Of a DNA stretch of 64,000 nucleotides, positions 12,170-28,147 are shown piece by piece (the stretch's first letter is position 1; the number at the start of each line of letters is the position of its first letter). The notes beneath the pieces were generated by a model. The model ran no database searches and was not told the origin of the DNA. It saw only the letters and a program-made list of their open reading frames with translations. The stretch comes from an uncultured Spirochaetota bacterium (lineage in GTDB: Bacteria > Spirochaetota > Spirochaetia > SZUA-6 > Fen-1364), in contig CAWGAA010000001.1 in the NCBI GenBank assembly GCA_963820525.1, positions 2,816,001 through 2,880,000 on the forward strand. Direction: 5' to 3'. The position numbers were made by a program, and so were the translations under genes.

Positions 12170-12304
12170 CGCATAGAGGGCCGAACGGCCAGCCAGGCAA
12201 TCTCCCGGGTACTCAATTAGCGCAGCCAGCGTTTCGCCAGCGTTTGACCGAGTCGAAGGAGTGGCCAACACCGAGTAGGGCTCTTTTTTGCAGCTTTTAG
12301 AATA

Positions 12305-12493
12305 TCATCCAACTTCAGGAATAGACAAAGAACGGCATATTTTGCGTGCAAGCAAGTTCGCGATCTCAGTATGTCTGGGGACTGCCTCCATGACGCCGGT
12401 TCGCGGGTTTACCCAAAGAGAGTGAGAGCGACCTTCCCGTTTGAGGACGCAACCATGAAAGCGTAGATGCCTGAGGAACTCAGTCCTCTTCAC
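12305..12493 (-). CDS. hicA: HicA-family toxin
   Basis: 62 aa with HGCVLKREGRSHSLW and VPRHTEI; overlaps the hicB stop. Confidence 0.85.
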   Translation of the reverse strand: MKRTEFLRHLRFHGCVLKREGRSHSLWVNPRTGVMEAVPRHTEIANLLARKICRSLSIPEVG

Positions 12494-12720
12494 GAGAGAC
12501 TGACAACATCCTGAATGGCATCGGCAGGCAACCCCCGGTGGGCATCCTCCCGCCTATCCTGCAAGATGAGGGCAATCGCCTCGGATAGGTTCTTCTTGCA
12601 TTCCTCAAGGGTTTCACCTTGGCCGTTCGCGCCGGGGATCTCCGGGCAATACCCGATGTACCACTTTCCGTCGCGCTCGATTATCGCGGTGAACTCGTTA
12701 TGCAGCGAATGCTTTGACAT
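12490..12720 (-). CDS. hicB: HicB-family antitoxin
   Basis: FTAIIERDGKWYIGYCPEIPGANGQGETLEECKKNLSEAI. Confidence 0.88.
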   Translation of the reverse strand: MSKHSLHNEFTAIIERDGKWYIGYCPEIPGANGQGETLEECKKNLSEAIALILQDRREDAHRGLPADAIQDVVSLS

Positions 12721-12769
12721 GATCATATACTACTGCGTGCCTCGAATGCGAACAAGAGGACAGCGAGCG

Positions 12770-12963
12770 CAGGTTCCGCCTATTCGGGGAGATTCCAGAA
12801 CATCGTCTGGGCGCAGGCGGTCTGGGATGTGTCGCGGGCGTTGGCCCTGAGCGCAGGTGCCAAGTACGTGAACAATCCGGGTCCCACGAGCGTCACCGAC
12901 AATGCGTCGAGGAGCAGTTTTTCCCTGCTGATGAGCCTCGGGTACAAAACGGGTATCGTCTGA
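12770..12963 (+). pseudogene. Orphan 3' fragment of a probable outer-membrane beta-barrel gene
   Basis: Frame with no start reads AYSGRFQNIVWAQAVWDVSRALALSAGAKYVNN...FSLLMSLGYKTGIV*, with amphipathic beta-strand pattern. Confidence 0.45.
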
Positions 12964-13081
12964 CGGTCAGGTCCCTGCAAGCTTTCCAAAGGCCGCGTCG
13001 AGGTCCCGGCATAACGAAAGCGCGGCTCGTAGAGTGAGGGCTCTCAGCCGGTATCACCCGGACGACGAACCCGGGGTCCGC

Positions 13082-14824
13082 TCACATCGGCTTCTTCCCG
13101 GCCAGCCAGAGGGTCTGGTACGGATCCATGGAGACGGATGTCCCGTTGATCGGCGGCGCGCCGAGAAGATCCTGGAGCGGACCGTGCAGGATCGTGGGCA
13201 GTGCCGCCTTTTCCAATACCAGCGTGCTTCTCTTGGGGCCCGTGTTGTGGATGCAGAGGACCGAATCGCGTTTGTCAGGGGAGGTTCGAAGCAGACAAAA
13301 CAGGGGTCCGTCCGTCGGCAGTACCTCCTGGCTCCCCTGGGGATGGAAGGCGGGGCGTGAGCTGCGTGCCCGCATACAGCTTGCAAGCCCGCCGTACACA
13401 CGGACCTGCAACCCTCCTTCCGATGCAAGGCTTTTCTCCACCTCCTCCAGGGAAAACTTCCGCCTGTTCACCGCCCGCTTGTTGCCTGTCTGCAAAGCTC
13501 TCCCGGGGTCTGCCGGCGCGCCGATGAGGCTGTTGGCCCATACGGCCGGCACCCCCGCGAGGCTCAGCATGATGCAATGCGAGGTGATGTATTTCCTGAG
13601 CCGAAGCCCTTCCTCCTCCCCGGGATCCGAGATCGCGTCCAACCACGTTGCATTCAACTCGTACGGGCTTTCCTTTTCAGCGCATGCCGCGGCATCGAAG
13701 CGATACGAGACCATGCCACCCCGCTCCCTCGTCATCCTGACGAGCCCCTCCACCTGCTCTTCCGTCAGGAAGTCTTTGGCCGGGACCAGCCCTATCCCGT
13801 CGTGGGATGAGAGGAAGTTCAGGAAGGCCGTGGCGCCCGGAGGCTGCTTCAGTGAGCTGGCCCACGCCCGCAGGGGTCCGGCGTCGCCGCGGCGAAAGGC
13901 GTCCAGGATGAGGGGCGGCAGGGTGAAGTTGTAGACCATGTGCGCCTCGTTTGAGCCATTTCCCAGGTAGGATATGTTCTGCTCATGAGGCACGTTCGTC
14001 TCCGTGACGATCATCACCCAGGGGCACAGCGCGTCCATGATGGCTCGTAGAAGCCGGACCACGGCATGGGTCCGCGGAAGGTGGACACAGCTCGTTCCGC
14101 TTTCCTTCCATAGGAATGCAACCGCGTCGAGACGGAGCACCTGCGCTCCCTGCACTATATAGCCCAAGAGCACATCCACCATCTCCAGAAGGACGGAGGG
14201 GTTTGCATAATCCAGGTCTGCCTGGTCCGCGCTGAAAGTGGTCCAGACGCGAATCTCCCCGCGGGAAGAATGAAAAGGCGTCAGCAGGGGATGGGTGCGG
14301 GGCCGGAATACCCGAGACAGGTCGGCGTTCTCCTCAGGCGTGATGAAGTAGCCGGCATATCTTGGGCTGCCCTTCAGGAACCCCCTGAACCAACGCCCCT
14401 GCGTGGAGGCGTGGTTGAGTACCAGATCCACCATAAGCCGGAAGTCCCCAGCAATGCGGCTCACATCCCGCCAGGTTCCCAGACGGGGATCCACACTGCG
14501 GTAATCCATGACGGAGAATCCCTCGTCGGAAGAGGAGGGAAAGAAGGGAAGAATGTGGACTCCTGAAAACGCCCCCGCCGCGAACCGCGTGAGGAAACGA
14601 TGGAGGCAGGACAACGGTACTGCCCCCCGGTTGCTGAAATGGTCTCCATACGCGATAAGGAACGCGTCTTTCTGGGAGAGCACCGCCGAGAAGCCGCCTA
14701 CAGCTCCGCGGGGGCGTCGTATGCGTTTCTCATACCGGCGCATTATCCTGGAGAGCCTCAGGGATGCCGTTTTTCCCTTTTCCCCGCCGTAGATGAAGCT
14801 CAGAAGCGCGCCGATTGTATCCAT
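13082..14824 (-). CDS. GH13_18 sugar phosphorylase, probably glucosylglycerate phosphorylase
   Basis: VHILPFFPSSSDEGF, DLVLNH, WTTFSADQADL, RLDAVAFLWK, TETNVPH, SHDGIG and PYELN motifs. Confidence 0.85.
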   Translation of the reverse strand: MDTIGALLSFIYGGEKGKTASLRLSRIMRRYEKRIRRPRGAVGGFSAVLSQKDAFLIAYGDHFSNRGAVPLSCLHRFLTRFAAGAFSGVHILPFFPSSSDEGFSVMDYRSVDPRLGTWRDVSRIAGDFRLMVDLVLNHASTQGRWFRGFLKGSPRYAGYFITPEENADLSRVFRPRTHPLLTPFHSSRGEIRVWTTFSADQADLDYANPSVLLEMVDVLLGYIVQGAQVLRLDAVAFLWKESGTSCVHLPRTHAVVRLLRAIMDALCPWVMIVTETNVPHEQNISYLGNGSNEAHMVYNFTLPPLILDAFRRGDAGPLRAWASSLKQPPGATAFLNFLSSHDGIGLVPAKDFLTEEQVEGLVRMTRERGGMVSYRFDAAACAEKESPYELNATWLDAISDPGEEEGLRLRKYITSHCIMLSLAGVPAVWANSLIGAPADPGRALQTGNKRAVNRRKFSLEEVEKSLASEGGLQVRVYGGLASCMRARSSRPAFHPQGSQEVLPTDGPLFCLLRTSPDKRDSVLCIHNTGPKRSTLVLEKAALPTILHGPLQDLLGAPPINGTSVSMDPYQTLWLAGKKPM

Positions 14825-15015
14825 GGAGCCTTTTCGAAAGTACTATATATCGGTGCGGCCAAGGCTGTCATGCCGCTGGTCCGCATGGATTCTGTCGGAG
14901 AGAAAGCCACCTTTGCCGCGGGAGCATCGGCTACTTTCAAGCCGATTTGTCACCCGGGGATAGGCCTTGAGGCCGGACAGGCAGCTATGGGCTCCAAGGC
15001 TGCCAGTCTCCTCCG

Positions 15016-15154
15016 CTACCGGCTTGAAGGGGCTGGAATCCCAAGAATCCTGCAAATCCCTCTGGCGGTCGCCCTCTTGATATTCGTGTGTCTTGGAACA
15101 GGTGCGTGTGATTGGGTACGAGCGGAGGTGCCTTTCAAGCGCCCTCCGATTCAT
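15016..15154 (-). pseudogene. hicA: hicA-family toxin with internal deletion and frameshift
   Basis: Begins MNRRALERHLRS. A second frame gives APVPRHTNIKRATARGICRILGIPAPSSR*. The central His-containing segment is missing. Confidence 0.75.
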
Positions 15155-15363
15155 GCTTTGATGCCGGCCAGTTTCTTGATCAGCTTTCGTCTGGATGCAG
15201 CAAGGGCAGACAGAGCGTCCCGCGCATTTTCGAAGGCTTCCTTGACGGTATCAGCCTCGGTGATGAGTTGGGGGTCAAGGGGAGACGTCACAACGTAGCA
15301 GCCCTCTTCGGCTTCCTGAAGAGTGAGAACGATCTTTCCATCGCTCACAGTGTATTGCTTCAT
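15151..15363 (-). CDS. hicB: HicB-family antitoxin
   Basis: EEGCYVVTSPLDPQLITEADTVKEAFENARDAL; ATGA overlap with the hicA remnant; TTGACG-N18-TATCCT promoter. Confidence 0.75.
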   Translation of the reverse strand: MKQYTVSDGKIVLTLQEAEEGCYVVTSPLDPQLITEADTVKEAFENARDALSALAASRRKLIKKLAGIKA

Positions 15364-15422
15364 CGCAACTAGGATATGCCTCAGTGGGCTTTTGCGTCAA
15401 TCACTCTCCTCGAACAGAGCCC

Positions 15423-15507
15423 GGCCAACACCGAGTAGGCCGGGCAATGCCCCATGTACCACTTCCCGTCGCGCTCGAAGATCGCGGTGGACTCGTAGGC
15501 CTCGAAT
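15423..15507 (-). repeat. Internally deleted copy of the 12263-12755 hicBA cassette
   Basis: GGCCAACACCGAGTAGG equals 12263-12279. 15440-15496 matches 12642-12698 with 6 mismatches in 57 bp. GCCTCGAAT equals 12739-12747. Confidence 0.85.
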
Positions 15508-15532
15508 CGCTATCAGTCCTGCCACCCTCCCG

Positions 15533-16204
15533 CTAGAACCGATACGCCGTACAGAAGTTGAAGTAAAACGGCACTGTCACAGGGTTGAACCCCTCTGTCA
15601 GGGTATAGCCTCCCCGCAGGTTGATCGAGAGACCTCCAAAAAGGCTGATTCCCCCCTGGATGCCGAACTTGAATCTGCCCGCAGTGCTCGCATACCAGCC
15701 GTCCTTCGCATCGGGATAGATGGCCTTATACAGGTCGCTGTTGGCGATATATGTGAAGAGATCCTTGTCGTATTCCGCTTCCAGGAACACATGGAAGCGC
15801 TCGCCCATATGCCCGATGAGGATGGTTTCCTTGAAGCCACTGGTAATGCCGGAGTACAAATCATTGTCCGTCGTCATCATGAAAAGACCCAGCCGGTTCA
15901 TAACCGATAGGAAGCCGATATCGAAGAGACGGACCCTCCCCGCGGCGTTGAGCTCCCAGTGTTTGAGGTCCATCAAAAACATGGGCACTGATGCATCTGC
16001 GGTGAAAAGGACATCCCGATCGATGAAATCCAGACGGAAGCTTTTTGCCATCCCTACGCCAAACGCAAACATGGGGTCTACGTCGAAGTTGAAATAGAGA
16101 CCGAAGGCCTCAGGCGCCACGCTGTTCAGCACCTCTTCCGCCCAAAGCGCGCCTGCTGCACATGCAAGGAACAGAACGAGCGCCAGTACTATCGTCTTTC
16201 TCAT
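15533..16204 (-). CDS. Exported protein, probable outer-membrane beta-barrel
   Basis: Signal peptide, alternating aromatic beta-strands and C-terminal YRF. Confidence 0.65.
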   Translation of the reverse strand: MRKTIVLALVLFLACAAGALWAEEVLNSVAPEAFGLYFNFDVDPMFAFGVGMAKSFRLDFIDRDVLFTADASVPMFLMDLKHWELNAAGRVRLFDIGFLSVMNRLGLFMMTTDNDLYSGITSGFKETILIGHMGERFHVFLEAEYDKDLFTYIANSDLYKAIYPDAKDGWYASTAGRFKFGIQGGISLFGGLSINLRGGYTLTEGFNPVTVPFYFNFCTAYRF

Positions 16205-16217
16205 GTGATCCTCCTCA

Positions 16218-17219
16218 TTATTGTAGAAAGTTCCTTATGGCCGCCTGAGTCTCGGCCGCTTTTACCCATACCTGGTCATGTCCGGCATCCGGGATGGTTA
16301 TGTACGTATTTGTGACGTGGGAGAAATAGCTTTCCATCACATGCCGCATGTAGGCGTCCGTCATGACACCGTTCAAGCCTCCCCGGACAAAAAGCACATC
16401 GCCACTGAACGCTCCAAAACCTGCGGTGAAGTCCCACGACGGCGAATTACCCTTGATCCCTTCCTCGGTCAACGTTTTATGAGCCACCGCCCCGTTTCTC
16501 CAGAACGGCATTCTGTCGGTTGTGCTCTCATGGTAATCCGGACAGAAGTTGAATGCTCCCAGCGCCCTTTCGTAATCAAGCCGTGCGTGGCCGTCCGGAG
16601 AGATGAAGTCCTCACCCCATACCCAATCGTTTACCCAGGGCTGAGAGAGATCGGTATCGAAAAAAGGCTTGAAGTAGGTTGTGAAATCTCCGCCTGTCAG
16701 GGGACCCGGATCAATGAGGATCATCCTCGACACTTTGGCCGGGTGCCTGGCGGCATACAGGACTGCGAACTGACACCCCCATGAATGGCCGAGCAGGATG
16801 ACCGTCCCCGTTCCCCTATAGGAGTCGACGATTTGATCCAGGTCGCGGCAATAGATCTCGACACTTATTTCATCAGGATTATGACGCTGGGAGAGGCCGC
16901 TTCCCCGCTGGTCGAACATGACCAGAAAATAGTCGTCCGAAAGCCCCTGCAATCTGGTCAAACCGCGGTAGTCGAATCCCGGTCCGCCGTGCAGGAAGAT
17001 AACGACTGGATTTGAAGGATTGCCAAAGGTCTCCAGGTGGAGTCTGGTCCCGTTGATGTCTTGGCTGGGAAGGGCAGAGTCCTCCATGACTGTCTTGGGG
17101 ACCAGGTTCCCCGGTTCATCCGGGTTCAAGATGCTGCACGCGGAGCAAAGAGCAGCCAATGCGCCGAGCAGCAGCCTCGCCGTGGTCTGTGTTGCCTTTA
17201 ATTTTCTTTTCATTTCCAC
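16218..17219 (-). CDS. Alpha/beta hydrolase lipoprotein (proline iminopeptidase-like)
   Basis: Lipobox-like LCSAC, plus LHGGPG, DQRGSGLS, GHSWG and DAGHD. Confidence 0.82.
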   Translation of the reverse strand: MEMKRKLKATQTTARLLLGALAALCSACSILNPDEPGNLVPKTVMEDSALPSQDINGTRLHLETFGNPSNPVVIFLHGGPGFDYRGLTRLQGLSDDYFLVMFDQRGSGLSQRHNPDEISVEIYCRDLDQIVDSYRGTGTVILLGHSWGCQFAVLYAARHPAKVSRMILIDPGPLTGGDFTTYFKPFFDTDLSQPWVNDWVWGEDFISPDGHARLDYERALGAFNFCPDYHESTTDRMPFWRNGAVAHKTLTEEGIKGNSPSWDFTAGFGAFSGDVLFVRGGLNGVMTDAYMRHVMESYFSHVTNTYITIPDAGHDQVWVKAAETQAAIRNFLQ

Positions 17220-17367
17220 TCCTCCGTTTGAGGATTCAACACGGCGGAGCAGAATATTTCGTATCGAACTTTGGATTGATTCTGAATATTTCTTCTACGC
17301 CTTTGGATTGAGAGCGGATCTTCAGTCGCTCGCCGGTCCGTGGTTCCTGTGATACAGTCTCATTCGA

Positions 17368-18297
17368 ATGGGGCACCTTCTGATCGCATACGATCTCTTC
17401 GTCCTCATGATCGGATTCGCGGCACTCACCTTCGCCCTGCTCCACGCTTTTCGTTCCCGCACGCCGGGGGCTCTGTATTTCAGCCTCCTGTATTTCCTGT
17501 TCACGGCCATTGTGGTCCTTACGGTCGTGGACAGGTATCTCCTCTTGAACGTGCGAGGCGTCTCCCTCCGTGCTATCTTCATCCTGCGCGGGGTCAAGGA
17601 AGTGCTCCACTTCGCGTTGGTGTACTCCGCCATTCTCTATCTGCAGGATGATCTGGCCTTGATATGGCGCTCCCACATCGCCCTCGGGCTGCTATTCCCA
17701 ACGGTTTTGAGCGCCGCGCTCGTGCTTCTGCCGGGCGGCGTTGTCTTCCGGGAGGAGGAGAGGCGCATCCTCTTCGGTACGGGGTATTTCCTCGCTTCGG
17801 GATGTTCCCTGCTCTTGTTCACCTACGCGATTTCGCTGGGAATCGCGAGCGTCCTGAAGGCAGCAAACGTGAAAACCCGCGGCTTCCGGCTGGGTTTGAT
17901 TCTCTTCGCCGGGGTCGGCTACTTCGAGACCATTGCGGGATTCGTGGCGAACATTATCCGCACCTACGACGTTCTTTCCATGGAACACGGAGGGTTCCTC
18001 TTGAGCTCGGTGCCGTACGCGCTCTATGGCGTTTTCCTGATCGGCTTTTTCGCCCGTTCGGGAGCGATGTCCGACTCGGAAGCGCAAAAACTGTCCGAAG
18101 CCTTCAGCGAGCGCTCAGGGATTACGGCCCGTGAGGAAGAAATTGTCCTGCTGGTCGTCCTCGGAAAAACGAATGGCGAGATCGCCGACGCCCTTAGCAT
18201 ATCCCTCGCCACCGTGAAAACGCATCTCCATAACGTCTTCCGAAAAGCCGGCGTCCGAAGCCGCTACGGCCTCATCCACAAGGCTCGCGGGCGTTGA
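17368..18297 (+). CDS. Membrane-anchored LuxR-family transcriptional regulator
   Basis: About 7 TM segments, then ITAREEEIV...GKTNGEIADALSISLATVKTHLHNVFRK. Confidence 0.85.
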   Translation: MGHLLIAYDLFVLMIGFAALTFALLHAFRSRTPGALYFSLLYFLFTAIVVLTVVDRYLLLNVRGVSLRAIFILRGVKEVLHFALVYSAILYLQDDLALIWRSHIALGLLFPTVLSAALVLLPGGVVFREEERRILFGTGYFLASGCSLLLFTYAISLGIASVLKAANVKTRGFRLGLILFAGVGYFETIAGFVANIIRTYDVLSMEHGGFLLSSVPYALYGVFLIGFFARSGAMSDSEAQKLSEAFSERSGITAREEEIVLLVVLGKTNGEIADALSISLATVKTHLHNVFRKAGVRSRYGLIHKARGR

Positions 18298-18305
18298 TTT
18301 TGGCT

Positions 18306-19451
18306 CTAGAAATGGTACTGCAGGGAGAAGCCGAACGGCGAGAATGCGCTTCCGTCCAGCTTTGTCATGTTCAGCGCCCAGCTCATGTATGCCGAAAGGT
18401 GCAGCTTGTTGAAGACGGCCGCCACAATTCCCGCGCCCGTTGTACATACGACCCCCTGGCTGCCTGAGTCCGTGTACCGGTAGTAGCCCGAATCGAGAAA
18501 GGCGAAAATCCCGGGAATGAGGTCCGGGTGAACGAGGGATGGGAAGAGCATGCGCAGCTCCAGGTTGTCCACCGCTTTCAGCTCCGCGTCGAAACGCCCC
18601 TTCTCGAGGCCCCTCACCCATCCGCCCAACCCGGGACGCTGCTGAAAACCCCCGATGCTCTGCCGGGCCAGGATGGGTATGTATGAGCCATACAGGTAAT
18701 CCACGATGAGATTGTTGCCCGCCGTGAGGCTCGCCCACGTGTATTCTGCGTCCTTCGGCACGACGAACAGAGGCAGGAAATAATCCACCCGAAGGGTGAG
18801 TCTCGAGAAATCGCTTTTCCCGACAACGGTATTGAAGAAAAACTCCGGGCTCCACTCCAGGGACGTTTCGACGAACAATCCGGATTTGCTCCCGCTCCTT
18901 TCATTTTCCTGGGCTACGTTGAGCGCAAGCTCCAGGAAAAGCGAGTTCTGAAGTATCCCGTAAGCATCGGGCGGTCTGCCCGATTGCCGGAGGAGCAGCG
19001 AGGCTCCGCCCGGGTTGTTGCTCGTGAGGATGCCGCGGTAGTAAAGCGTCGACTCCAGAATGTTGCGCGTGCGTTCAATGTCCCGGAGGAGCCCCTGGCT
19101 TATCCCGAGCCCCCAGCTCATTCCCGTAGTATAGAAGGAAAGAGCGTCGGAAGGCTCCGAATCCTGGCTTGTGACCTGCGTGCCGTCCGGTTTCCTCAGG
19201 TAGAAAGTCGGCTCATACGCGCCGCCGATGCCGATCCAGAGTGTGGTGTCCAGGCCGGGAACGAGGCGAAGCTCCCGATTCCCTATCCTTGCATCGACTC
19301 CGAACATCTTTGGCTGCGGCCTGATCACCCATGCAGGTCCCCCATCCGCCGCCGTGCCCAGCTCAATGCCCTGAAACTCCTGACCATGAAGGGTAAGGCT
19401 CGGGAAGACCGATACGATGGCCGCGAGGATCAGGCTTTTCATGCGCATCAC
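18306..19451 (-). CDS. Outer-membrane beta-barrel protein (Omp85/TamA-like barrel end)
   Basis: Signal peptide, GGWVRG (VRG-like loop), NLELR, FAFLDSG and terminal YHF. Confidence 0.6.
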   Translation of the reverse strand: MMRMKSLILAAIVSVFPSLTLHGQEFQGIELGTAADGGPAWVIRPQPKMFGVDARIGNRELRLVPGLDTTLWIGIGGAYEPTFYLRKPDGTQVTSQDSEPSDALSFYTTGMSWGLGISQGLLRDIERTRNILESTLYYRGILTSNNPGGASLLLRQSGRPPDAYGILQNSLFLELALNVAQENERSGSKSGLFVETSLEWSPEFFFNTVVGKSDFSRLTLRVDYFLPLFVVPKDAEYTWASLTAGNNLIVDYLYGSYIPILARQSIGGFQQRPGLGGWVRGLEKGRFDAELKAVDNLELRMLFPSLVHPDLIPGIFAFLDSGYYRYTDSGSQGVVCTTGAGIVAAVFNKLHLSAYMSWALNMTKLDGSAFSPFGFSLQYHF

Positions 19452-19891
19452 TTCAGCTCGACGAGGATGTCGTCCACGTCGCGGTCTACGGGAAACGCGA
19501 TGTCGGTGAATCGCGGTTTCCCGATCGCGGCAGCTCTTTTCCTGTAGGTGCTCATGGGCTCCGTCGGACCGAAAAGGCCCTTGTCCAGCACGCCGTTTCC
19601 GTTCGTGTCCAGGAAGCAGATGATGCAGTACATGCCCTCCGCCACTTCCTCCACCGTGAACGGGATGCGTACGGAGCCGGAGCCGCTCCCCCGCGCTGCC
19701 AGGGTCACGGTGTATGGCGCGCCGCGGCCCTCGTCCCGGCCGAAGGTCTCCTCGGTGTAGAGCATGAGCCGCACGGTGCCCTCGCGGCCCACCGAGATCG
19801 TTCCGCCTACGCTGTGCGTCCGGGTTTCAGCGCAGAGCGGAATCGTGGAGAGGAGAAGCAAGGCACAGGCAAGTGCATGCATGTATTTCAT
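19448..19891 (-). CDS. DUF2141-like exported protein
   Basis: GMYCIICFLDTNGNGVLDKGLFGPTEP and KPRFTDIAF. Confidence 0.75.
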   Translation of the reverse strand: MKYMHALACALLLLSTIPLCAETRTHSVGGTISVGREGTVRLMLYTEETFGRDEGRGAPYTVTLAARGSGSGSVRIPFTVEEVAEGMYCIICFLDTNGNGVLDKGLFGPTEPMSTYRKRAAAIGKPRFTDIAFPVDRDVDDILVELK

Positions 19892-19903
19892 TTCATTCCT
19901 CCA

Positions 19904-21154
19904 TCAGTAATGGAAATAAAGATCGAGCTCCGCCTGGAAGGGATTCGGCTTGGAGCCCATTTCGGAGCCGGCCGCTCCGTACTGGATCCGTGAGGTCAGG
20001 ACGGCCTCGAAGTTGTCGAACGGCGCGTAGGAGAAGGACGCGCTGCACGATAAGCTCAGGTCATCCAGGTTCCACAGCACCGAGAGCGATGGGGTGAAGT
20101 AGAGCAGGTCGAACGGCTCGGGCTGGGTTATTTTCACATTGATGTAATCCCGCATGACGGCCGGTTTTTCGAGCAGGGGCATGGACTGCCGGCGCGCCGT
20201 GCCGATGAGCTGCTGGTTACCCGAGCGCAGGATGTTTTCGTTGTACGCAAGGAAAGCCCCGTATTCCGAGGTTGAATAGCCGGCGCCGTTGTAGAAGTAT
20301 TCGACGACGGCGGTCGTATTCCAGGGGCTCAGGAACCGCATCCCCACAAGCGCCCGCTCTGAATCCTCCTGGAGGGTTGCGGGGAGGGGGCCGTCGAACG
20401 CGGTCTTCGGGGTTTGAAGACAGTACGCCGCTTCGCCGTGAAATTCGAGGTTCTCAAGAAGGTTGAAGGACACGTCCGCGCCCACCTTGTGCTGCCCGGC
20501 GGAGCTGTACAGGCCCATGACGTCCGCATCCACGCCTCCAATGAGAAATGTGAGTTTCAACGCCATGTCCGTGTCCTCGATGTCGAACGAATTGTCCCCC
20601 GCTATCGGACCGGGTATGACAAGCAGGCTTGCCGACGCGGTCTGGAAGAAATCGGATGGGAGGCTCACCAGGAACTCCGCGTCCAGCGAGACGATGCCCT
20701 GAGCGCGCTTCTCAGGGGTTCTCGGATCCTTCTCCGGGTTGACGAACCCGACGGCCGAGAAGGCGTACCCCTTGCCCCAACCGTAGATGATACGTCCGAC
20801 TCCGAGAGAGATGTTGTTCGATACATTGACCGTCCCCCGCAGCTCGTCGATGGTGAGCGAAACGAAATCGCCCGCGGTGTCGACCGTGCTCTTCAGGGAA
20901 AACGCCAGGTAGGGATTGCTATACTCCGCGTCGGCAGCAAGGAGGAATTCGAGCGCATTGGCGTAATGCGAAGAGGCGTATTGGTAGAGGTCGAGCAGGT
21001 ACTGGGGCGTGGACGGGGACACGTAGTATCCCTGGTACGCGCCTTGAAGGAAGCCGTTGATTGAGAGGCCGTCCCTCTCGGGAAGCGCGTCTTCCGGGAA
21101 AAGCGGCAACGCGATAGAGAGGACCAGGAGCGCGGGCATGAGCGTCGTTTTCAT
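19904..21154 (-). CDS. Outer-membrane beta-barrel protein
   Basis: Signal peptide, VGRIIYGWGKGYAFSAVGFVNP, VEYFYNGAG and an aromatic C-terminus. Confidence 0.65.
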   Translation of the reverse strand: MKTTLMPALLVLSIALPLFPEDALPERDGLSINGFLQGAYQGYYVSPSTPQYLLDLYQYASSHYANALEFLLAADAEYSNPYLAFSLKSTVDTAGDFVSLTIDELRGTVNVSNNISLGVGRIIYGWGKGYAFSAVGFVNPEKDPRTPEKRAQGIVSLDAEFLVSLPSDFFQTASASLLVIPGPIAGDNSFDIEDTDMALKLTFLIGGVDADVMGLYSSAGQHKVGADVSFNLLENLEFHGEAAYCLQTPKTAFDGPLPATLQEDSERALVGMRFLSPWNTTAVVEYFYNGAGYSTSEYGAFLAYNENILRSGNQQLIGTARRQSMPLLEKPAVMRDYINVKITQPEPFDLLYFTPSLSVLWNLDDLSLSCSASFSYAPFDNFEAVLTSRIQYGAAGSEMGSKPNPFQAELDLYFHY

Positions 21155-21900
21155 TTGGCGAGCCCCTTCAATTTCGACATGTATGCCAGCGTGAAAAATT
21201 CGTCGGGAAACTCCTTTGCCTGTATGCGCGTGAAGACCATCTTCGACGTGTAGCCTTCATGGAGCGAGCTTGTCGTGGTCATGACGGCAGGCCGTACGAT
21301 GCCGTTTCCGAAATCTTTCGTGTCCGAGAACTCGATTGTCTTCAGGAGCATTCTGCCCGCCGTGTGGCATTCGATTTTTTCCACGATCAGGCCCTTCTTC
21401 TGGACGTACATCCTGACGTACGCGTACGCGACGCTGTTCGAGCGGGCGCGCAGGTCGAGGACGAAGCGCCCTTCATCCTGCGAGGCGATGGACGGGGCGT
21501 ATTCGACCGAAAAGTCGAGGGCAAGGATGTCCGCGTTGTCGAATATCCCCCCTGTGACGGATTGGAGGCTCGTCTGGCGGATGGGGCGTCCCACGCTCGG
21601 AATGTAGAGCCACAGGTTGTCGCCCACCCTGAGCATGGAGCGATCCTTTTCGCTCGACGGCGCCAGGAAAAGAAGCGCTATCCTGTCCGTCCCTTTCTTG
21701 ATCATGTACACGTCGTGGGTTTTCTGCGTGCCGTTCGGTTCGATGTCGATGATCCTCCGAAACGCACCGTAGGAAGAGGGCATGAGATTCCGGTCAACCT
21801 GCCGGAGCAGGTCATCGGCATCCTGCCCGAAGGCGGCGGAGCAGAGGGAGACGAGAATGGCCGTGAGAACGGGCGTCAGACCACATGAAGCTGATTTCAT
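21151..21900 (-). CDS. LolA-like outer-membrane lipoprotein-sorting protein
   Basis: FLAPSSEKDRSMLRVGDNLWLYIPSVGRPIR, FDNAD and PDEFFTLAYM. Confidence 0.8.
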   Translation of the reverse strand: MKSASCGLTPVLTAILVSLCSAAFGQDADDLLRQVDRNLMPSSYGAFRRIIDIEPNGTQKTHDVYMIKKGTDRIALLFLAPSSEKDRSMLRVGDNLWLYIPSVGRPIRQTSLQSVTGGIFDNADILALDFSVEYAPSIASQDEGRFVLDLRARSNSVAYAYVRMYVQKKGLIVEKIECHTAGRMLLKTIEFSDTKDFGNGIVRPAVMTTTSSLHEGYTSKMVFTRIQAKEFPDEFFTLAYMSKLKGLAK

Positions 21901-21927
21901 ATTTGCGCAACCTCCATGGATTTCTTC

Positions 21928-23172
21928 CTACACGTGGCCAAGGGCGTCCACCGGGTCGAGTCGCGAGGCTTTGTGGGCCGGCTGCAGACTGGCCAGGATG
22001 GAAACCAGGATAACCATGACGGAAACGGAAGCGATGTCCGCCGGCGTGAGCCGCGTGATGAGCTGTAGGGTGAAGGGGCCCGCCTTGAAGTGGATGGCGG
22101 CCGCGTCGAGGATGACCAGAACGAGCCCCCCGACTGCAAGCCCGACGACGAGGCTCATGGCCCCCAGCGTGACCCCCTCCAGGAGAAAGAGCCTTCGGAT
22201 GCGGCGCGCCGGGGTGCCCATTGCCGATATGGTCCCGATCTCCTTGGTGCGCTCGTACACCGCCATCATCATGATGTTGAGAACGCTGATGAGGACGATG
22301 GCGATGAGCACGAACTTCACCACGTAGGTGACGATGCTGACGAGCATGAGGATGCTGGTGAACGGGCTCAAGCTTTCCCACGTGTCGACCTCGTAGACCG
22401 CCCCATCCAAAGCCCGTCCGCCGGGTCCCCCGGACAGAAGCGCCCCGTACACGCTCTTGAGGCGGTCGATGTCGCGCAGGCGGATCGCCACCTCCGATAT
22501 TTCAGGCTCATCCATTTGCAGCAGCGCCTCGGCGTCCGAGATGTGGATGTAGCCGTTTCTCAGGAACTCTCCGGCTGCGAAGCCTTCCAGGATTCCCGCG
22601 ACCGTGAAGACGGCGCCGTTCATGGAGCCGTGCCTGTTGGTGCAGACCAGAACGACGGAGTCGCCGATGGAGAGGTGGAATGCGGTCGCTATCAGGCCGG
22701 GAATGATGATTTCGCCGGGCTTGAGGAAGCGCTCCGTATCCTTGACCTCCGTGAGGCGGTCCGGAAGCGCCGGGCAGGTCCTCGATTCCCTTTCGGGATC
22801 AACGGCCGTAAGCTTCATCGTCGTCGTTTCTGTGTATATGCTGGCCATGGCCATGAAGTTGATCCGCGGGCTGTACGCCTCCACGTCGGCGTTGTTGTCC
22901 AGCGCCTCCCGAAGGTGTTCCATCTCCTTGCCGTCCAGATAGAGGTTGAGGGGGCTGGCATTGATGATTTTCGTGTATCCCTTCTTGTGGACCTGCACGT
23001 GGGAGAGCATCGTGTCCGTCAGGATGCTCGTGACCGAGTACCTGAATCCGCCGACGAACCCCGATGTGACGACGACGAGCATGACCCCGATGACGATGAG
23101 CATCGAGGTGAGGAGCGTCCTCCGCCTGTAGCGGAACAGGTTCCTGAGAGCGATCTTAGCGAGATTGCGCAT
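21928..23172 (-). CDS. LolC/E-MacB/FtsX-type ABC permease
   Basis: ALRNLFRYRRRTLLT, ERTKEIGTISAMG and PAHKASRLDPVDAL. Confidence 0.88.
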   Translation of the reverse strand: MRNLAKIALRNLFRYRRRTLLTSMLIVIGVMLVVVTSGFVGGFRYSVTSILTDTMLSHVQVHKKGYTKIINASPLNLYLDGKEMEHLREALDNNADVEAYSPRINFMAMASIYTETTTMKLTAVDPERESRTCPALPDRLTEVKDTERFLKPGEIIIPGLIATAFHLSIGDSVVLVCTNRHGSMNGAVFTVAGILEGFAAGEFLRNGYIHISDAEALLQMDEPEISEVAIRLRDIDRLKSVYGALLSGGPGGRALDGAVYEVDTWESLSPFTSILMLVSIVTYVVKFVLIAIVLISVLNIMMMAVYERTKEIGTISAMGTPARRIRRLFLLEGVTLGAMSLVVGLAVGGLVLVILDAAAIHFKAGPFTLQLITRLTPADIASVSVMVILVSILASLQPAHKASRLDPVDALGHV

Positions 23173-23865
23173 TGCCGTTGCCTCCCTGCCTGCGGTCGAC
23201 GAGCCGGCCGTCCTCCAGGACGTATATCCACTCGGCTTCTCCTACGATCTTCTGATCGTGCGTAGAGAAGATGAAGGTCGTGCCGAGGCTTTCCTTCATC
23301 GCCTTCATGACCGCGATCACCTTCAGGGCCGTTTGGTGATCGAGGTTGGCAGTCGGCTCATCCGCCAGAACCACCTTCGGGTTCGTCACCAGGGCGCGGG
23401 CCACCGCAACGCGCTGTTTCTGCCCCCCGAAATTTGGGACGGGAGCTTATCCTTCTGGTCGGACATCCCTACACGGCTCAGGAAATCCATTACGCGCGCG
23501 GCGCGCTCCTTCTTCCTGACATTGCTCACCATGATCAACGGGTATTCGACGTTTTCGAAAACGGTGAGAACCGGGATGAGGTTGAAGTCCTGGAATATGA
23601 ACCCGAGGTGCTCGCTTCGAAAGCGTACGGTCGCCTCGCGGCAGAGCGATTGGATCTGCTGTCCCGCGATCGTGATGCTGCCTGCAGTCGGCCGGGCCAG
23701 GCAGCCGAGAAGGTTCAGCAGAGTGGTCTTTCCGCTCCCCGACGGTCCTATGAAGCTGACGAACGATCCCGTGTCGATGCCCAAGGTCACGCCCCTGAGG
23801 GCATGCACTTCGATGTCTCCATTTTTGTATACCTTGCTTACCTCTCTCATCTCGATCACTTTCAT
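23156..23865 (-). pseudogene. LolD-like ABC ATP-binding protein with a one-base deletion frameshift (real or sequencing error)
   Basis: Walker A GPSGSGKTT. The signature ISGG/QKQRVAVARAL breaks at a G6 run (C6 at 23423-23428) that needs G7. LADEPTANLD follows in the shifted frame. Confidence 0.85.
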
Positions 23866-23902
23866 CAAAACATCTCCTCCATGCACGCGGTGTCATAGAA
23901 CA

Positions 23903-23918
23903 ATCAAGAAGCGTGCCA
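23903..23918 (-). promoter_or_regulatory. Probable sigma54 (-24/-12) promoter
   Basis: Minus strand reads TGGCAC-GCTTC-TTGAT against consensus TGGCAC-N5-TTGC(A/T); adjacent to a GAFTGA activator locus. Confidence 0.65.
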
Positions 23919-24008
23919 AGACGGGAGTTGGCGGTGGGATGAAAAGCCGGGAAAACTGTGAATATTTGCCTTTTTTCGATGTCCGATCCCGGCCTTCGGC
24001 GGACCCGG

Positions 24009-24025
24009 TGCGTAATGATTACGCA
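24009..24025. promoter_or_regulatory. Candidate upstream activator sequence
   Basis: Perfect palindrome TGCGTAAT-G-ATTACGCA about 90-105 bp upstream of the -24 element. Confidence 0.55.
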
Positions 24026-24123
24026 ATGCCCGAATCTGATTCCTTTTTATGCATCGCCGCCGGTGGCTTGACACTTGGCCCACTCCGGCAAATAAAATGG
24101 CTTTGGGGTGCGGTGAGGCACGA

Positions 24124-25341
24124 ATGAAAATCTTCAGGGAAGAGGCCCTGTTCGTCCTGGCGCTGATAGTCCTTTTTCTATTTACGATCGGGCTGGTCGT
24201 TTTTTACTCCACCATCTTCAGCAACACCAACCTTGGCATGGTGAAAAAGGGAATAGGTATCGTCGCCGGCGACCTGATCCTCCGCTATAGGGAGAGGAAG
24301 GAGCTGGTCCCCGACGGCTTCGGGGAGTTGTTGGGCGCCGGCATCTATGGGGAGAACGGCCTGCTCCTGGCCGGGTTCGGAAGCGCCCCTTCTCGCCTGG
24401 AAAAAGCCGCGGGGGAATCGATGGTCGTCGATAATCGACGCCAGAGCATCAGGGCGATCCTTTTCAGGAGCGTGCAGCTCTCCGACGGGCGGACGGATGG
24501 GCCGTATCGTGTTTTCGCGGAGGTGGATATCCACGAACAGCTCCGGAGATTCACCTTCATCAAATACACGAGCCTCATGGGCCCCATTCTCCTTGCCGTC
24601 GTCATGGTCACCATGGTCGCGCTATACACCCGCAACGTGAAGTACCGCAGAAAGATATCGCTCCAGGAGCAAATGGTGCACCTGGGGGAGGCGGCCCGGA
24701 CGCTGTCCCACGAGATCAAGAACCCCTTGAGCGCGATCAGGCTCCAGACGGCGTACCTCAGGCGGGTCTCCCCCGACGTGAACCTCACGTCGATAGGCAT
24801 CATCGAAGAGGAGGTGGATCGGCTGGCCAACCTGAGCAAACAGGTGGCCAACTTCATACGGGATCCCCGGGGTACTCCCGAGGACATCGATCTGTGCGAC
24901 TTCATCGAGAAGCTGTGCTCCCGGTTCCATCATCCCGTCGTCTTCGACGGCTTGCGGAAGGGCTCCCTGTATATTTCTGCGGACAGGGAAAGGCTCAGGT
25001 CCGTCTTCGAGAACATGCTACGGAATGCGGACGAGAGCATGCTCCCCGAAACCGAGGGGGGCGCGGAGGCGTCAGGTCTTCAGGCGCCTATTGAGATCCG
25101 TTTCCGCACCGAAAGGGAGAACGTCGTGGTGGAAGTCCTCGACAGGGGCTGCGGCGTCGCGGGCGGGAAGTCCGAAAGGCTCTTTGATCCCTTCGTCACG
25201 ACAAAAGTGAAGGGCTCGGGCCTGGGGTTGTTCATCGCTCGAAGTTTTGCCGAAGCGGCGTCGGGTTCCATCCGGCTGGGAAACCGCTCGGGCGGCGGCA
25301 CCGCGGTAGCCGTCTCCTTTCCCCTGAGGAAGAAGAAATGA
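24124..25341 (+). CDS. Sensor histidine kinase
   Basis: Two TM segments, H box LSHEIKNPL, N box ENMLRNA, DRGCG, FDPFVTTK and GSGLGL. Confidence 0.92.
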   Translation: MKIFREEALFVLALIVLFLFTIGLVVFYSTIFSNTNLGMVKKGIGIVAGDLILRYRERKELVPDGFGELLGAGIYGENGLLLAGFGSAPSRLEKAAGESMVVDNRRQSIRAILFRSVQLSDGRTDGPYRVFAEVDIHEQLRRFTFIKYTSLMGPILLAVVMVTMVALYTRNVKYRRKISLQEQMVHLGEAARTLSHEIKNPLSAIRLQTAYLRRVSPDVNLTSIGIIEEEVDRLANLSKQVANFIRDPRGTPEDIDLCDFIEKLCSRFHHPVVFDGLRKGSLYISADRERLRSVFENMLRNADESMLPETEGGAEASGLQAPIEIRFRTERENVVVEVLDRGCGVAGGKSERLFDPFVTTKVKGSGLGLFIARSFAEAASGSIRLGNRSGGGTAVAVSFPLRKKK

Positions 25342-26657
25342 AAGTGCTCGTGGCGGACGACGAACGCAACATCCGCAACACGATAGCAGACTTCCTGAAG
25401 CTTGAGGAAATCGAGTCCATGAGCGCGGAGAACGGGCTCTCCGCACGGCGCCTCCTGGAGAGCCAGTTCTTCGACGCGGCCGTCGTCGACCTCCGCATGC
25501 CGGGGATGGACGGCCTGTCGCTCCTCCATTGGATACGGGAAGAGGGACCCGAGATTCCCGTGATCATCATATCGGCGTATGGCGAAATAAAAGATGCCGT
25601 GCAGGCGATGAAGCTCGGGGCGGCGGACTACATCGTGAAACCCTTTGATCCTGAAGAGCTGGTGATGCGCCTGAGGAAGATCCTCCAGCTCCGTTGGCTG
25701 CAAGAGGAATGCGAGACGGGGCGCCGCGCGTTCGACGGTGAATCTGAGGTCATCGGAGTGACGAAAGCCATGGGGGACATCAAGGAGCTCGTCAAGAAGG
25801 TGGCCTCCACGAGCTCGACGGTCCTCATTACCGGAGAGAGCGGCACGGGCAAGGAGGTCATTGCGAGGCTCCTCCACCGGGAGGGCCGGGGTCCGCAGAC
25901 TCCTTTCGTTGCGCTGAACGTCGGCGCCATCCCCGAAAGCCTTCTGGAGAGCGAGCTCTTCGGGCACGAGAAAGGGGCTTTCACCGGGGCGGAGGCGCGC
26001 AAGCTGGGGATGTTCGAGCTGGCTTCCTCGGGGACACTCCTTCTGGACGAGATAGGGGAAATGCCTCTTCACCTGCAGGTGAAACTGCTTCGCGTGGTCC
26101 AGGAGAACAGGATCCAGCGCCTCGGCGGGACCCAGCAGATTCCCATCAACGCGCGTCTTCTGGCGGCCACCAACAGGAACCTTCACGCGATGGTGGAGGA
26201 GGGCGGCTTCAGGCAGGACCTCTATTACAGGCTCAACGTCATACACATCCACCTTCCTCCGCTGAGAGAGCGGCGGGAAGACATTCCCCTTCTCGCCGGG
26301 AGCCTGCTGAAGAAACTGGGCAGGAAACTGGAAAGGCCCGTCGCGGACCTGAGCCCCGAAGCCCTTCAGGCCCTCCAGTGCTATGACTTTCCCGGGAACA
26401 TACGCGAGCTGGAAAATATGATCGAACGCGCCCTCATTCTCTGCGAAGGGAGCGTTATCACGTGCTCGGATCTGGGCATGAAGCCGGCCGCAACACCGTA
26501 CCGCGAGGCTCCGCGCGGGACCCTACGGGACATCGAAAAATGGGCCGTTCGGCAGGCCCTGCAGAGATGGGAGGGAAACCGGACGCGGGCTGCCGAGGAG
26601 CTTGGCTGCAGCCGGAAGACTCTTCAGAACAAGATCAAGGAATACGGGCTGGAATGA
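25338..26657 (+). CDS. Sigma54-dependent response regulator (NtrC/AtoC/ZraR family)
   Basis: Receiver DLRMPGMDG, GESGTGKE, GAFTGA, FPGNIREL and a Fis-type HTH. Confidence 0.95.
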   Translation: MKVLVADDERNIRNTIADFLKLEEIESMSAENGLSARRLLESQFFDAAVVDLRMPGMDGLSLLHWIREEGPEIPVIIISAYGEIKDAVQAMKLGAADYIVKPFDPEELVMRLRKILQLRWLQEECETGRRAFDGESEVIGVTKAMGDIKELVKKVASTSSTVLITGESGTGKEVIARLLHREGRGPQTPFVALNVGAIPESLLESELFGHEKGAFTGAEARKLGMFELASSGTLLLDEIGEMPLHLQVKLLRVVQENRIQRLGGTQQIPINARLLAATNRNLHAMVEEGGFRQDLYYRLNVIHIHLPPLRERREDIPLLAGSLLKKLGRKLERPVADLSPEALQALQCYDFPGNIRELENMIERALILCEGSVITCSDLGMKPAATPYREAPRGTLRDIEKWAVRQALQRWEGNRTRAAEELGCSRKTLQNKIKEYGLE

Positions 26658-26699
26658 CGCCCGGGAGGCGCCCTATGCGGTGCGGCCTCCCGAGAGCCG

Positions 26700-26834
26700 G
26701 ATAATCTTGTAGAATTCGACCCTGGAGAGGAGCCGGGCCTAATCGGTCTGGCTGAAATGGAAGCTGAGCTGTCAACCTTGCTCGATGGGCGTCCTGTTGA
26801 TATGCGCACGCCTAAAGATCTTAGCCGCTACTTC
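26700..26834 (+). pseudogene. Fragment of a minimal nucleotidyltransferase (MNT, HEPN-MNT TA type)
   Basis: [45 protein letters not shown] resembles the C-terminal half of MNT proteins. Confidence 0.7.
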
Positions 26835-27332
26835 CTGGGGCTGCTTTTCCCGCTGGCCGTAGCGATACTTCCCCTCTACCTGCAGGTGCACGCAACGGGT
26901 CTCCTGGACACCTACATGGGGGTGGTCCTTCCCCAGGTGGCGTTCCAGATTCCCCTGCAAGTGCTCCTTTTGCGCGGGTTCTTCAAGGCGGTTCCGATGG
27001 AATTGCAGGACGCCTGCGAGATCGACGGCTACGGCCCCCTGGGTTTTCTCTGGTTCATAGTGGTGCCGCTTTCCACCCCCATTCTCGCCACCTCGGGAAT
27101 TCTTACCCTTGTGGCAAGCTGGAACAATTTCTTCCTGCCGCTCCTGGTGTTCAACAACCCCGCCAGGTTTACCCTTCCACTGGGCGTCATGGCCTTCCAG
27201 GGCCAGCATGCCTCGGACTGGAATCTCATCCTCGGCTACTTGACTCTCGCCATGCTCCCCGCCATCGCGCTTTTCATCCTGGCTCAAAAATATATAGTCG
27301 CGGGACTGACGGGGGGCGCGGTTAAAGGCTGA
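26829..27332 (+). pseudogene. C-terminal half of a carbohydrate ABC permease (MalG-like), 5' end lost
   Basis: EAA-like [19 protein letters not shown] and [15 protein letters not shown]. No partner genes nearby. Confidence 0.8.
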
Positions 27333-27364
27333 AACATCGGCTGCCGTGCGGCCGATTCACCCCC
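27255..27364 (+). repeat. 110-bp direct repeat, copy 1 (permease 3' end plus flank)
   Basis: Matches 28020-28129 with 8 substitutions. Confidence 0.92.
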
Positions 27365-27365
27365 C

Positions 27366-27475
27366 AGGGCTCCGCGTATTTTGCAGCAATAGACAAAGAA
27401 CGGGAAATCTTCCGTGCAAGCTGATTCGAGATTTCGGTATGCCTGAGATATGCTTCCATGGCGCCAGTTCGGGGG
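27366..27475 (-). pseudogene. Remnant of the 12.3-kb hicA and its flank (third cassette copy)
   Basis: PRTGAMEAYLRHTEISNQLARKISRSLSI versus PRTGVMEAVPRHTEIANLLARKICRSLSI. Flank motifs AGGGCTC and TTTTGCAGC are shared with 12277-12294. Confidence 0.8.
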
Positions 27476-27511
27476 TGTGCTGGTGACGGTAGGCATTTGT
27501 AGAGCATCACA

Positions 27512-27751
27512 CTAGAATAGCGATATGACCTCATCCTTTTCGACATGCTTGTGCGACGCAACAGCACTGAAAATGGCGTTTAGCGTTCCCAAACGAAGGC
27601 TCTTATGATCTGGAATAGCGATTCTCTGATGGGAGGGCTCGTCGGTTTCGAGCACGATATGACTTCCCATTTCGTGAACTAACTGGTAATTGAGCTTTCT
27701 TACAAGAGTAGCCGCGACTTCGCGTCCGCTTAAGCCCCGGGGAATCCTCAT
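27512..27751 (-). CDS. hicA: HicA-family toxin
   Basis: GSH motif and IAIPDHKSLRLGTLNAI. Confidence 0.82.
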   Translation of the reverse strand: MRIPRGLSGREVAATLVRKLNYQLVHEMGSHIVLETDEPSHQRIAIPDHKSLRLGTLNAIFSAVASHKHVEKDEVISLF

Positions 27752-27969
27752 GCCACAGTGAAGACTTCATCACGAACCAGATGGAGTCGAACTCGTGCCG
27801 GCGGTGTATTGTCAAAAAAGAAAGCCGACACCGCTTCAGTCACGTTCTTTCGGAGTTCCTCCCAGCTATCTGCTTCGGTGATGATGCTTTCACTTAGACA
27901 TTCTGCGACAAATCCGCCATCCTGCTCTTGAAGTACTTCGAAAACGAGTTCAGTGTTTCGGGTCTCCAT
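27748..27969 (-). CDS. HicB-like antitoxin
   Basis: ELVFEVLQEQDGGFVAECLSESIITEADSWEELRKNVTEAV; ATGA overlap with hicA; TTGAAA-N17-TAAGAT promoter. Confidence 0.75.
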   Translation of the reverse strand: METRNTELVFEVLQEQDGGFVAECLSESIITEADSWEELRKNVTEAVSAFFFDNTPPARVRLHLVRDEVFTVA

Positions 27970-28129: not shown

Positions 28130-28147
28130 TGCGGCGAGGCTTGGGAC

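Follow-up and report, generated by a model that had tools for sequence, protein, structure and literature searches.

How does a short piece of one toxin-antitoxin (TA) operon come to lie directly beside a different operon of the same superfamily, and does such an arrangement call for a dedicated mobility system? The question is raised by a stretch of 64,000 nucleotides (nt) from an uncultured Spirochaetota bacterium (assembly GCA_963820525.1, contig CAWGAA010000001.1, positions 2,816,001 to 2,880,000), which we refer to as the window and in which positions are counted from the first letter. The window contains three hicBA-type TA pairs, all on the minus strand and with the antitoxin gene before the toxin gene, as a first-pass annotation made from the letters alone had correctly stated. 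That annotation described the first pair as an intact cassette (copy A) and two fragments as its decayed copies (B and C), each beside another pair, and it proposed an undescribed system in which small cassettes move in trans as defined units and stack at preferred sites. The explanation that we favor, with moderate confidence, is instead ordinary gain, stacking and deletion of TA units in gene-poor, relic-rich gaps of the chromosome, and not a new mobile system.

The window corresponds to G000:C1:2816001-2880000 of a 5.05-Mb genome in four contigs, where G000 denotes the organism's own genome, G008, G009 and G011 its relatives, and L-numbers individual loci. G000 is the sole member of its genus, and the cassettes of its relatives are 72-80% identical to those of the window. 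Relatives of HicB1, the antitoxin of copy A, were collected from 89 loci, 80 of them metagenomic and nine from relatives, and protein searches of the 5 Mb returned about a dozen hicA- or hicB-like places. In addition, Logan contigs of four metagenome runs, two from freshwater sediment (X1, X2) and two from wetlands in two studies (X3, X4), were aligned onto window positions 11800-28400.

An intact cassette and two old relics

Copy A has retained both of its genes as open frames. The toxin gene hicA1 (12305-12493, minus strand) encodes 62 amino acids (aa), is 84-90% identical to hicA of the loci L013, L057, L050 and L063, and matches Pfam HicA_toxin (PF07927) with an E-value of 2.1e-5 and 25 bits, just under the cut-off of 27. 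The antitoxin gene hicB1 (12490-12726, minus strand) encodes 78 aa; it exceeds the cut-off of Pfam UPF0150 with 29 bits, and the similarity of its product to TTHA1756 and HicB chains among PDB sequences (E 2.6e-4 to 4e-3) suggests that it comprises the N-terminal HicB fold only. The promoter with which the annotation had endowed copy A is less certain. A consensus scan found no sigma-70-like promoter for it, while returning one each for pairs 2 and 3, and what remains is a putative promoter at 12727-12757 (minus strand), the last block conserved with relatives when upstream regions are aligned. The homology of the cassette types to their relatives ends just upstream of the -35 region on one side and near the toxin stop codon on the other, so the conserved unit is a minimal operon, and this supports the view that the cassettes behave as units that would run from promoter to terminator. 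Beyond the toxin gene, the 3' flank of copy A (12246-12304, minus strand) holds GACCGAGTCGAA at 12246-12257, a 17-mer at 12263-12279, AGGGCTC at 12277-12283 and a T-run. The flank probably represents a terminator or junction module in decay; its predicted fold is no better than that of shuffled sequences.

Copy B is a relic of 85 nt (15423-15507, minus strand) in which the 17-mer is joined straight to codons ~10-32 of hicB1, so that it equals copy A minus 362 nt internally. The 17-mer (15423-15439 against 12263-12279) is identical at 17 of 17 positions and occurs exactly twice in the 5.05-Mb genome, and the 57 bp of hicB that follow (15440-15496 against 12642-12698) are 89% identical, with an E-value of 2e-14 in a whole-genome BLAST search. 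Both parts are thus as first described. The terminal GCCTCGAAT had been assigned to the promoter side of the cassette and is ambiguous, as 15496-15507 is equally collinear with the continuation of hicB1 at 12699-12710 (9 of 12 positions). Copy C is a relic of 111 nt (27366-27476, minus strand) consisting of AGGGCTC, the T-run and the last ~31 codons of hicA1, all three of which our alignments bear out. Its hicA part (27384-27476 against 12316-12408) is 78% identical to copy A (whole-genome BLAST E 6e-15), while AGGGCTC at 27366-27372 and TATTTTGCAGC at 27377-27387 align with 12277-12294, where 25 nt of copy A are missing from copy C. Given whole-genome E-values of this order, relics B and C are not chance resemblances.

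The two relics lie close to other pairs, copy B 60 nt upstream of hicB2 and copy C 36 nt downstream of the hicA3 stop codon, each beside the pair that the annotation had named. By a rough estimate, two relics that are each less than 100 nt from another pair are far beyond chance. That hicBA units adjoin one another far more often than expected by chance is also supported by G011, by L064 and L067, and by the strain represented in X3 and X4. Judged by their identity to copy A (89% and 78%), copies B and C are old; the distance between C and A is that of cassettes in other genera.

Common boundaries, which a mobile unit of defined ends would leave, were sought by searching the whole genome and the relatives as the annotation had suggested. 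The endpoints differ among the copies: A and B are alike leftwards to 12263, A and C only to 12277, and both right ends are lost. Empty sites were not definable in species-level relatives, in which the matched abhydrolase and permease genes have different neighbors, and neither an empty/occupied site pair nor a target duplication was seen for a single cassette. Apart from a 110-nt repeat described below, a repeat finder returned no direct or inverted repeat flanking a cassette on both sides, and the window cassettes lack the terminal inverted repeats, target-site duplication and transposase by which transposons and insertion sequences (IS) are recognized. The statement that no transposase or integrase adjoins the pairs is upheld by 36 open reading frames (ORFs) spanning 74-43812, which yielded no integrase and no transposase family when compared with family profiles; of the 12 matches to the tyrosine recombinase family PF00589 in the genome, none falls inside the window. 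A TCGAAC motif was considered as a recombination core at cassette ends and dismissed, as in pair 3 it belongs to the conserved surroundings of the -35 box and its other instances are the same module rather than independent occurrences. Elsewhere in the genome, cassette A has no further copy bar short hicB1-like pieces at C1:1143398 and C1:2132514.

A probable deletion between neighboring cassettes in a close strain

A close strain, with long (backbone) contigs at 0.4-3% difference from the window, is present in the metagenome runs X3 and X4. In each of these runs one contig proceeds from 12169 through 19 other letters to 12285-12337 and from there directly to 15018. The segment absent from this strain, 2,680 nt at 12338-15017, comprises most of cassette A, a sugar-kinase gene relic, an amylase-family gene and 190 nt of spacer, and its loss places the hicA2 stop codon next to the last 11 codons (33 nt) of hicA1. 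In pair 2 the X4 contig carries the window's letters at most of the listed sites over 15160-15220. The difference is best read as a deletion, since an insertion that exactly rebuilds hicA1 is implausible. Deletion between neighboring cassettes can therefore produce the architecture of a relic beside another pair, as seen at site C and as taken by the annotation for a sign of stacking at preferred sites. This loss of 2.68 kb was the only strain polymorphism found.

The contigs also bear on the possibility of misassembly, which the annotation had listed among the findings that would undo its proposal. Those of X1 and X2, which may be the source sample, show 0-1 differences from the window over 12405-13441, 26050-26758 and 27402-28387, stretches that cover the join of relic C with pair 3 and that of pair 3 with the 110-nt repeat and leave out the joins at 15423-15440 and 27364/27365. 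In each of the four runs the contigs have an extra C after 23422, within a LolD-like ABC ATPase gene (23159-23886, minus strand), and the frameshift in that gene is accordingly an assembly error. Single-base frameshifts in this assembly are not to be trusted, whereas large deletions are a different matter.

Two further features of the contigs are worth recording. In the amylase-family gene (13031-14830) the X3 and X4 contigs differ from the window by ~5%, compared with 0.4-3% for the backbone, and they run 450 nt into unlike sequence past 14830, so that the gene has another context in a related population. Over 25650-26203 the summed contig depth rises to ~440 in X3 and X4, where short joints and loose ends abound; this stretch encodes a conserved sigma-54 activator ATPase domain that draws contigs of many other organisms, and the jump is not a feature of the locus.

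Erosion of pairs in the window and in relatives

Pair 2 is itself partly decayed. Alignment with its own-genome paralogue at C1:1121.6 kb and with G008 identifies hicA2 (15016-15154, minus strand) as a pseudogene that has lost 56 nt internally and is shifted in frame. The lost segment includes the conserved core of the toxin; the hicA2 of G008 scores 30.6 bits against PF07927. The antitoxin gene hicB2 (15151-15363, minus strand; 70 aa) is intact; its product appears HicB-like from matches to the PDB sequences 6u0i and 6hpb (E 1e-3 to 3e-3), and no Pfam family exceeds its cut-off. A promoter-like site precedes it at 15371-15400 (minus strand; TTGACG, 18 nt, TATCCT in the consensus scan). The placement of copy B beside pair 2 thus stands with respect to adjacency, and the notion of a complete pair does not.

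In pair 3, the toxin gene hicA3 (27512-27751, minus strand; 79 aa) is intact and reaches 27.4 bits against HicA_toxin, with a cut-off of 27. The candidate antitoxin gene (27748-27969, minus strand; 73 aa) is assigned by position and size, as its product has no Pfam match and no significant family match, TTHA1756 being a weak one among PDB sequences (E 0.55). The consensus scan places a promoter-like site at 27976-28004 (minus strand; TTGAAA, 17 nt, TAAGAT). Relatives and an X3 contig are homologous to pair 3 as far as 28010-28015; the contig matches the stretch 27491-28015 and is unlike the window beyond it. Paralogues of pair 2 (89%) and of hicB3 (87%) are present in the same genome at C1:1.10-1.12 Mb.

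Loss of the toxin gene in the presence of a whole antitoxin gene is common among relatives. A truncated or frameshifted hicA stands beside a whole hicB in nine loci (L016, L058, L051, L030, L031, L035, L042, L038 and L050), and in L067 hicA1 breaks off near codon 44, where it is joined to the -10 box of a pair 2-type unit. The order of A-type and pair 2-type units also varies, the window and L067 having one order and G011 and L064 the other. In L050 (G008:C92:4900-13250, on one contig) a frameshifted Gp49/HTH pair, a pair 3-type unit, a DUF433 gene, a BrnA-like gene, a pair 2-type unit, katG with a Fur-family gene, and an A-type unit occur together, and the unit order A, 2, 3 is that of the window. 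Another locus of the own genome, L052 (G000:C1:2131926-2132890), contains an open MNT-like gene followed by a frame-switching DUF86/HEPN-like reading frame, a relic of 29 C-terminal hicB1 codons on the opposite strand, and a 3' half of tRNA-Asn with its own strong hairpin; it is another decayed stack of TA units.

Arrays of small units at tRNA-Asn

Where do such units accumulate outside the window? Downstream of the tRNA-Asn(GTT) gene of the genome, at about C1:1095126-1095198, come a hairpin (-29.5 kcal/mol, z -5.7) and a hicB3-type relic. The 3' half of this tRNA recurs in copies at C1:1101241, 1102263, 1103188, 1120787 and 2132859 and at C2:200714. The first three of these delimit units of ~1 kb, one holding a RelB-like antitoxin gene and one brnTA, and no integrase lies beside this array, the nearest PF00589 match being at C1:1155438. 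By a criterion of at most four mismatches in a 23-nt core, 8 of the 89 HicB1-relative loci contain a tRNA-Asn half, all eight of them within the 13 closest loci. L063 has one A-type unit between two halves 673 nt apart, in L064 the order is pair 2, half, A-type unit, and in L013, L014, L057, L063 and L068 an A-type hicA is followed by the hairpin, GAGTCGAAC and the half. The halves form part of a conserved junction composed of GTCCTCGATCA, GTGTTAAC, the T arm with the acceptor end, GAGTCGAAC and the hairpin. Both of its sides are conserved whatever the cargo, which may be A-type hicBA, a pair 2-type unit, a RelB-like antitoxin gene, brnTA or, in L057, an ORF of 120 aa. Bounding by 3'-half copies on both sides is encountered in L063, L064 and L057 and at C1:1101-1103 kb. 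The arrays in relatives and in the own genome are the mark left by repeated site-specific integration at a tRNA gene, in which units resembling cis-mobilizable elements (CIMEs) accrete in tandem. Whole tRNA or tmRNA genes beside the relatives' cassettes were also considered; ARAGORN and Rfam detected none in L011-L018, L050 and L052, and the sequences concerned are 3' halves, not genes.

Several observations were made around these arrays. The regions C1:1095100-1103300 and 1119600-1122100 (L059, L060) hold the tRNA-Asn gene, the hicB3-type relic, a TOTE-type primase/helicase defense locus, a hicB2-like relic and then the ~1-kb units, and a further copy of the junction lies upstream of the pair 2 paralogue. 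An IS110-family transposase gene at C1:1118366-1119642 (L060:8366-9642) ends ~100 nt from a truncated junction element consisting of acceptor end and module only, a possible sign that this insertion sequence jumped into a copy of the tRNA-Asn half. At C2:200675-200726 an IS630-type DDE gene abuts a half.

Some features of copy A recall these junctions. The 12-mer GACCGAGTCGAA is identical to the sequence directly past the tRNA-Asn gene; GAGTCGAA lies 55 nt from the hicA1 stop codon, compared with ~59-64 nt in L013 and L057; and the 17-mer can be aligned by eye with the loop of the hairpin module. The left flank of copy A was nonetheless not accepted as a homologue of the tRNA-Asn junction, as neither profile nor pairwise scores were significant, and it is kept only as a lead.

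Relics of unrelated genes and a 110-nt repeat

All three sites also carry relics of unrelated genes. Between cassette A and the amylase-family gene, 12964-13012 (minus strand) is the remnant of a sugar-kinase gene, its last 14 codons, and is 86% identical to the 3' end of the ORF at C2:320181-320699, which from reading the ORF we take to encode an FGGY-type sugar kinase. Site C is composed of a relic of an MNT-type nucleotidyltransferase antitoxin gene, a permease relic, relic C, pair 3 and a repetition of the final 110 nt of the permease region. The MNT relic (26664-26834, plus strand) has 74% aa identity to an open ORF at C1:2131926-2132228, presumably MNT itself from our reading of the ORF. 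The permease relic (26835-27332, plus strand) retains the C-terminal 166 codons of a sugar ABC-transporter permease (Pfam BPD_transp_1) whose full gene, of 278 aa, stands within a transporter operon in relatives.

The 110-nt direct repeat (left copy 27255-27364, right copy 28020-28129, both plus strand, 93% identical) consists of the last 78 nt of the permease gene and 32 nt beyond, and it brackets relic C and pair 3, with 765 nt from one copy to the other. Its copies differ at eight positions. All four differences within the 78 coding nt are at synonymous third positions, for which random mutation gives p ~0.0065, and this implies that the two copies diverged as working alleles of one gene before coming to lie side by side. 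The repeat thus points to recombination with DNA of another lineage, possibly by a single crossover with a circular piece. An exact-match scan of the metagenome contigs for the sequence to the right of the repeat returned nothing. Zero depth of X4 in the bin 27312-27865, both flanking bins being covered, was examined as a trace of an empty site and has no bearing on one, as no listed joint crosses the gap.

Discussion

Direct observation covers the copies with their relics, the deletion polymorphism and the relatives' arrays; what we infer is an origin of the window copies from a tRNA-Asn array and an order of events. Each hicBA unit would be a self-contained operon of promoter, antitoxin, toxin and terminator that was acquired horizontally. 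In this spirochaete family such units would typically come to stand in tandem by tRNA-Asn or by 3'-half copies of it as products of site-specific integration, the integrase being now elsewhere or lost. Neighboring units would then erode, either by breakage of the toxin gene first or by one deletion that takes toxin and antitoxin up to the next unit, and the outcome would be a short relic pressed against a different, still working pair. Copy A would be the unit that survived, and B and C what deletions have left of older copies of its type that had diverged.

Several points weigh against this account. The window contains no tRNA-Asn half by the criterion applied to the 89 loci, and a profile built from eight junctions of relatives finds nothing at the three window sites, even at E 100, but nine matches with an E-value of 0.002 or less in other parts of the genome. 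When the left flank of copy A is compared with the junction modules, its pairwise scores are matched by 3-42% of shuffles. The window copies are thus linked to the arrays weakly, by one 12-nt motif at the expected distance from hicA. Nor is one simple deletion sufficient for the X3/X4 strain, in which 12170-12284 is replaced by the 19 other letters, and the contigs are blind to rare variants, including circular forms. Finally, pure deletion does not predict a 110-nt repeat with only synonymous coding differences around relic C and pair 3.

The units might alternatively be mobile in their own right, as the annotation had proposed. In one version, which we regard as doubtful, the single TA units of ~0.7-1 kb are mini-elements that have no integrase and depend for movement on a tRNA-Asn-specific recombinase encoded elsewhere and acting in trans, and the copies in the window strayed to secondary sites beside earlier cassettes. 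One conserved junction joined to different cargo would be explained, as would the A-type unit between the two junctions of L063, the changing order of A-type and pair 2-type units, and an own-genome array that has no integrase beside it in a genome with 12 tyrosine recombinase matches elsewhere. Yet the window has no junction element, the endpoints of A, B and C differ, copies at 78-89% identity include no recent one, and the sole polymorphism seen is a loss; small-unit arrays between tRNA halves would, moreover, equally be left behind when larger islands decay and the addictive pair survives. A bolder version, which we consider unlikely, is an integron-like array at tRNA-Asn: TA operons of ~0.7-1 kb that each end in a conserved pseudo-tRNA-Asn junction of ~130 nt would be shuffled by a recombinase encoded elsewhere, the window copies would have escaped to secondary sites beside earlier cassettes, and the 110-nt repeat would be the scar of a circle integrated by homology. 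If true, this spirochaete family would possess a second cassette-capture system, based on tRNA-Asn, beside its classical integron. The original proposal of movement in trans therefore fares unevenly: the units do appear to extend from promoter to terminator, they cluster, and single units lie between tRNA-Asn halves in relatives and elsewhere in the genome; against it are the lack of common endpoints, the age of the copies, the lack of a tRNA half or integron attachment site (attC) in the window, and a polymorphism that is a deletion.

Duplication of a chromosomal segment seems to us improbable. A block of several cassettes, an MNT-HEPN pair and A-type hicBA with or without pair 2, would have been copied within the genome and then decayed differently in each place, which would fit an MNT relic 530 nt from copy C, an open MNT-like gene ~290 nt from the hicB1 C-terminal relic at C1:2132 kb (the two MNT stretches being 91% identical over 129 nt), the proximity of MNT to A-type hicBA in G009 and L064, and the paralogues of pair 2 and hicB3. 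The annotation had itself named homology into flanking genes as the mark of such an event, and between A, B and C homology never extends that far. The orientation and spacing of MNT relative to hicBA vary between loci, and identities that range from 78 to 91% from piece to piece are a misfit with one event. To chimeric joins made by the assembler at repeated hicBA sequence we attach hardly any weight. The assembly does contain at least one single-nucleotide error, the missing C after 23422, but relics diverged to 78-89% are not collapsed repeats, and the X1 and X2 contigs agree with the window over three stretches, a support that is not independent if these runs are the source sample.

Gain, stacking and deletion of TA operons hence remain the reading that we prefer, and on this reading the locus shows in fine detail how a chromosome sheds its TA operons, for which only two routes are safe, breakage of the toxin or joint deletion of the two genes. 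The natural pair of strains shows a deletion that collapses one cassette onto its neighbor, which yields relics beside working pairs without a dedicated mobility system.

Comparison with known systems

Tandem accretion is known from the families of integrative and conjugative or mobilizable elements, where CIMEs are integrase-less units bounded by attachment-site copies and arranged head to tail at one tRNA gene, and their movement would need an integrase provided in trans. The arrays described here differ in that their units are only ~0.7-1 kb long with a single TA operon, and the three copies in the window have no attachment-site copy. The window units also resemble the TA cassettes of chromosomal integrons, being small, provided with their own promoters, uniform in orientation and stacked, whereas they differ in being separated by ordinary genes. 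A profile (nhmmer) of 63 attC sites from this genome's integron, which models one attC family, gave no match at the cassettes and a best window match of E 3.2 at 17109. Pairs of RYYYAAC and GTTRRRY, tried as another sign of integron cassettes, are absent from the window and number only four per strand in the array itself, and are thus uninformative.

With respect to the HicAB family, the toxins match Pfam HicA_toxin, antitoxins 1 and 2 seem by sequence to resemble the N-terminal domain of solved HicB chains, and the antitoxin gene comes first and overlaps the toxin gene. The antitoxins, at 70-78 aa, depart from the family in having no DNA-binding family match in Pfam or NCBIfam, and that of pair 3 has no significant family match.

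A close parallel is the work on chromosomal type II TA pairs of Photorhabdus (Belot, Payelleville, Jurenas, Rocha and Van Melderen, Mol Biol Evol 2026, PMC13617665), on the basis of which the locus cannot be called an undescribed system: its passages on these pairs already report clustering, erosion and repeated acquisition. According to those passages, the pairs occupy small spots, often alone and with no mobility gene; 14 co-localized pairs were counted where 2.67 were expected; erosion removes the toxin first, or both genes; one location may be colonized repeatedly and independently; and duplicated pairs have no recombinase beside them, their sites being marked by short palindromes. This model of acquisition, clustering and two-step erosion matches the window locus, and we count it in favor of gain, stacking and deletion. 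The same passages invoke Tn3-type transposons and res-like palindromes, whereas here, in a spirochaete and for hicBA, relatives display the footprint of a tRNA-Asn 3' half; and the passages concerned do not single out the case of a relic that directly adjoins another pair of its superfamily. The locus is thus a further example of known TA turnover, in another phylum, with a tRNA-Asn footprint in place of Tn3 and with a natural deletion allele.

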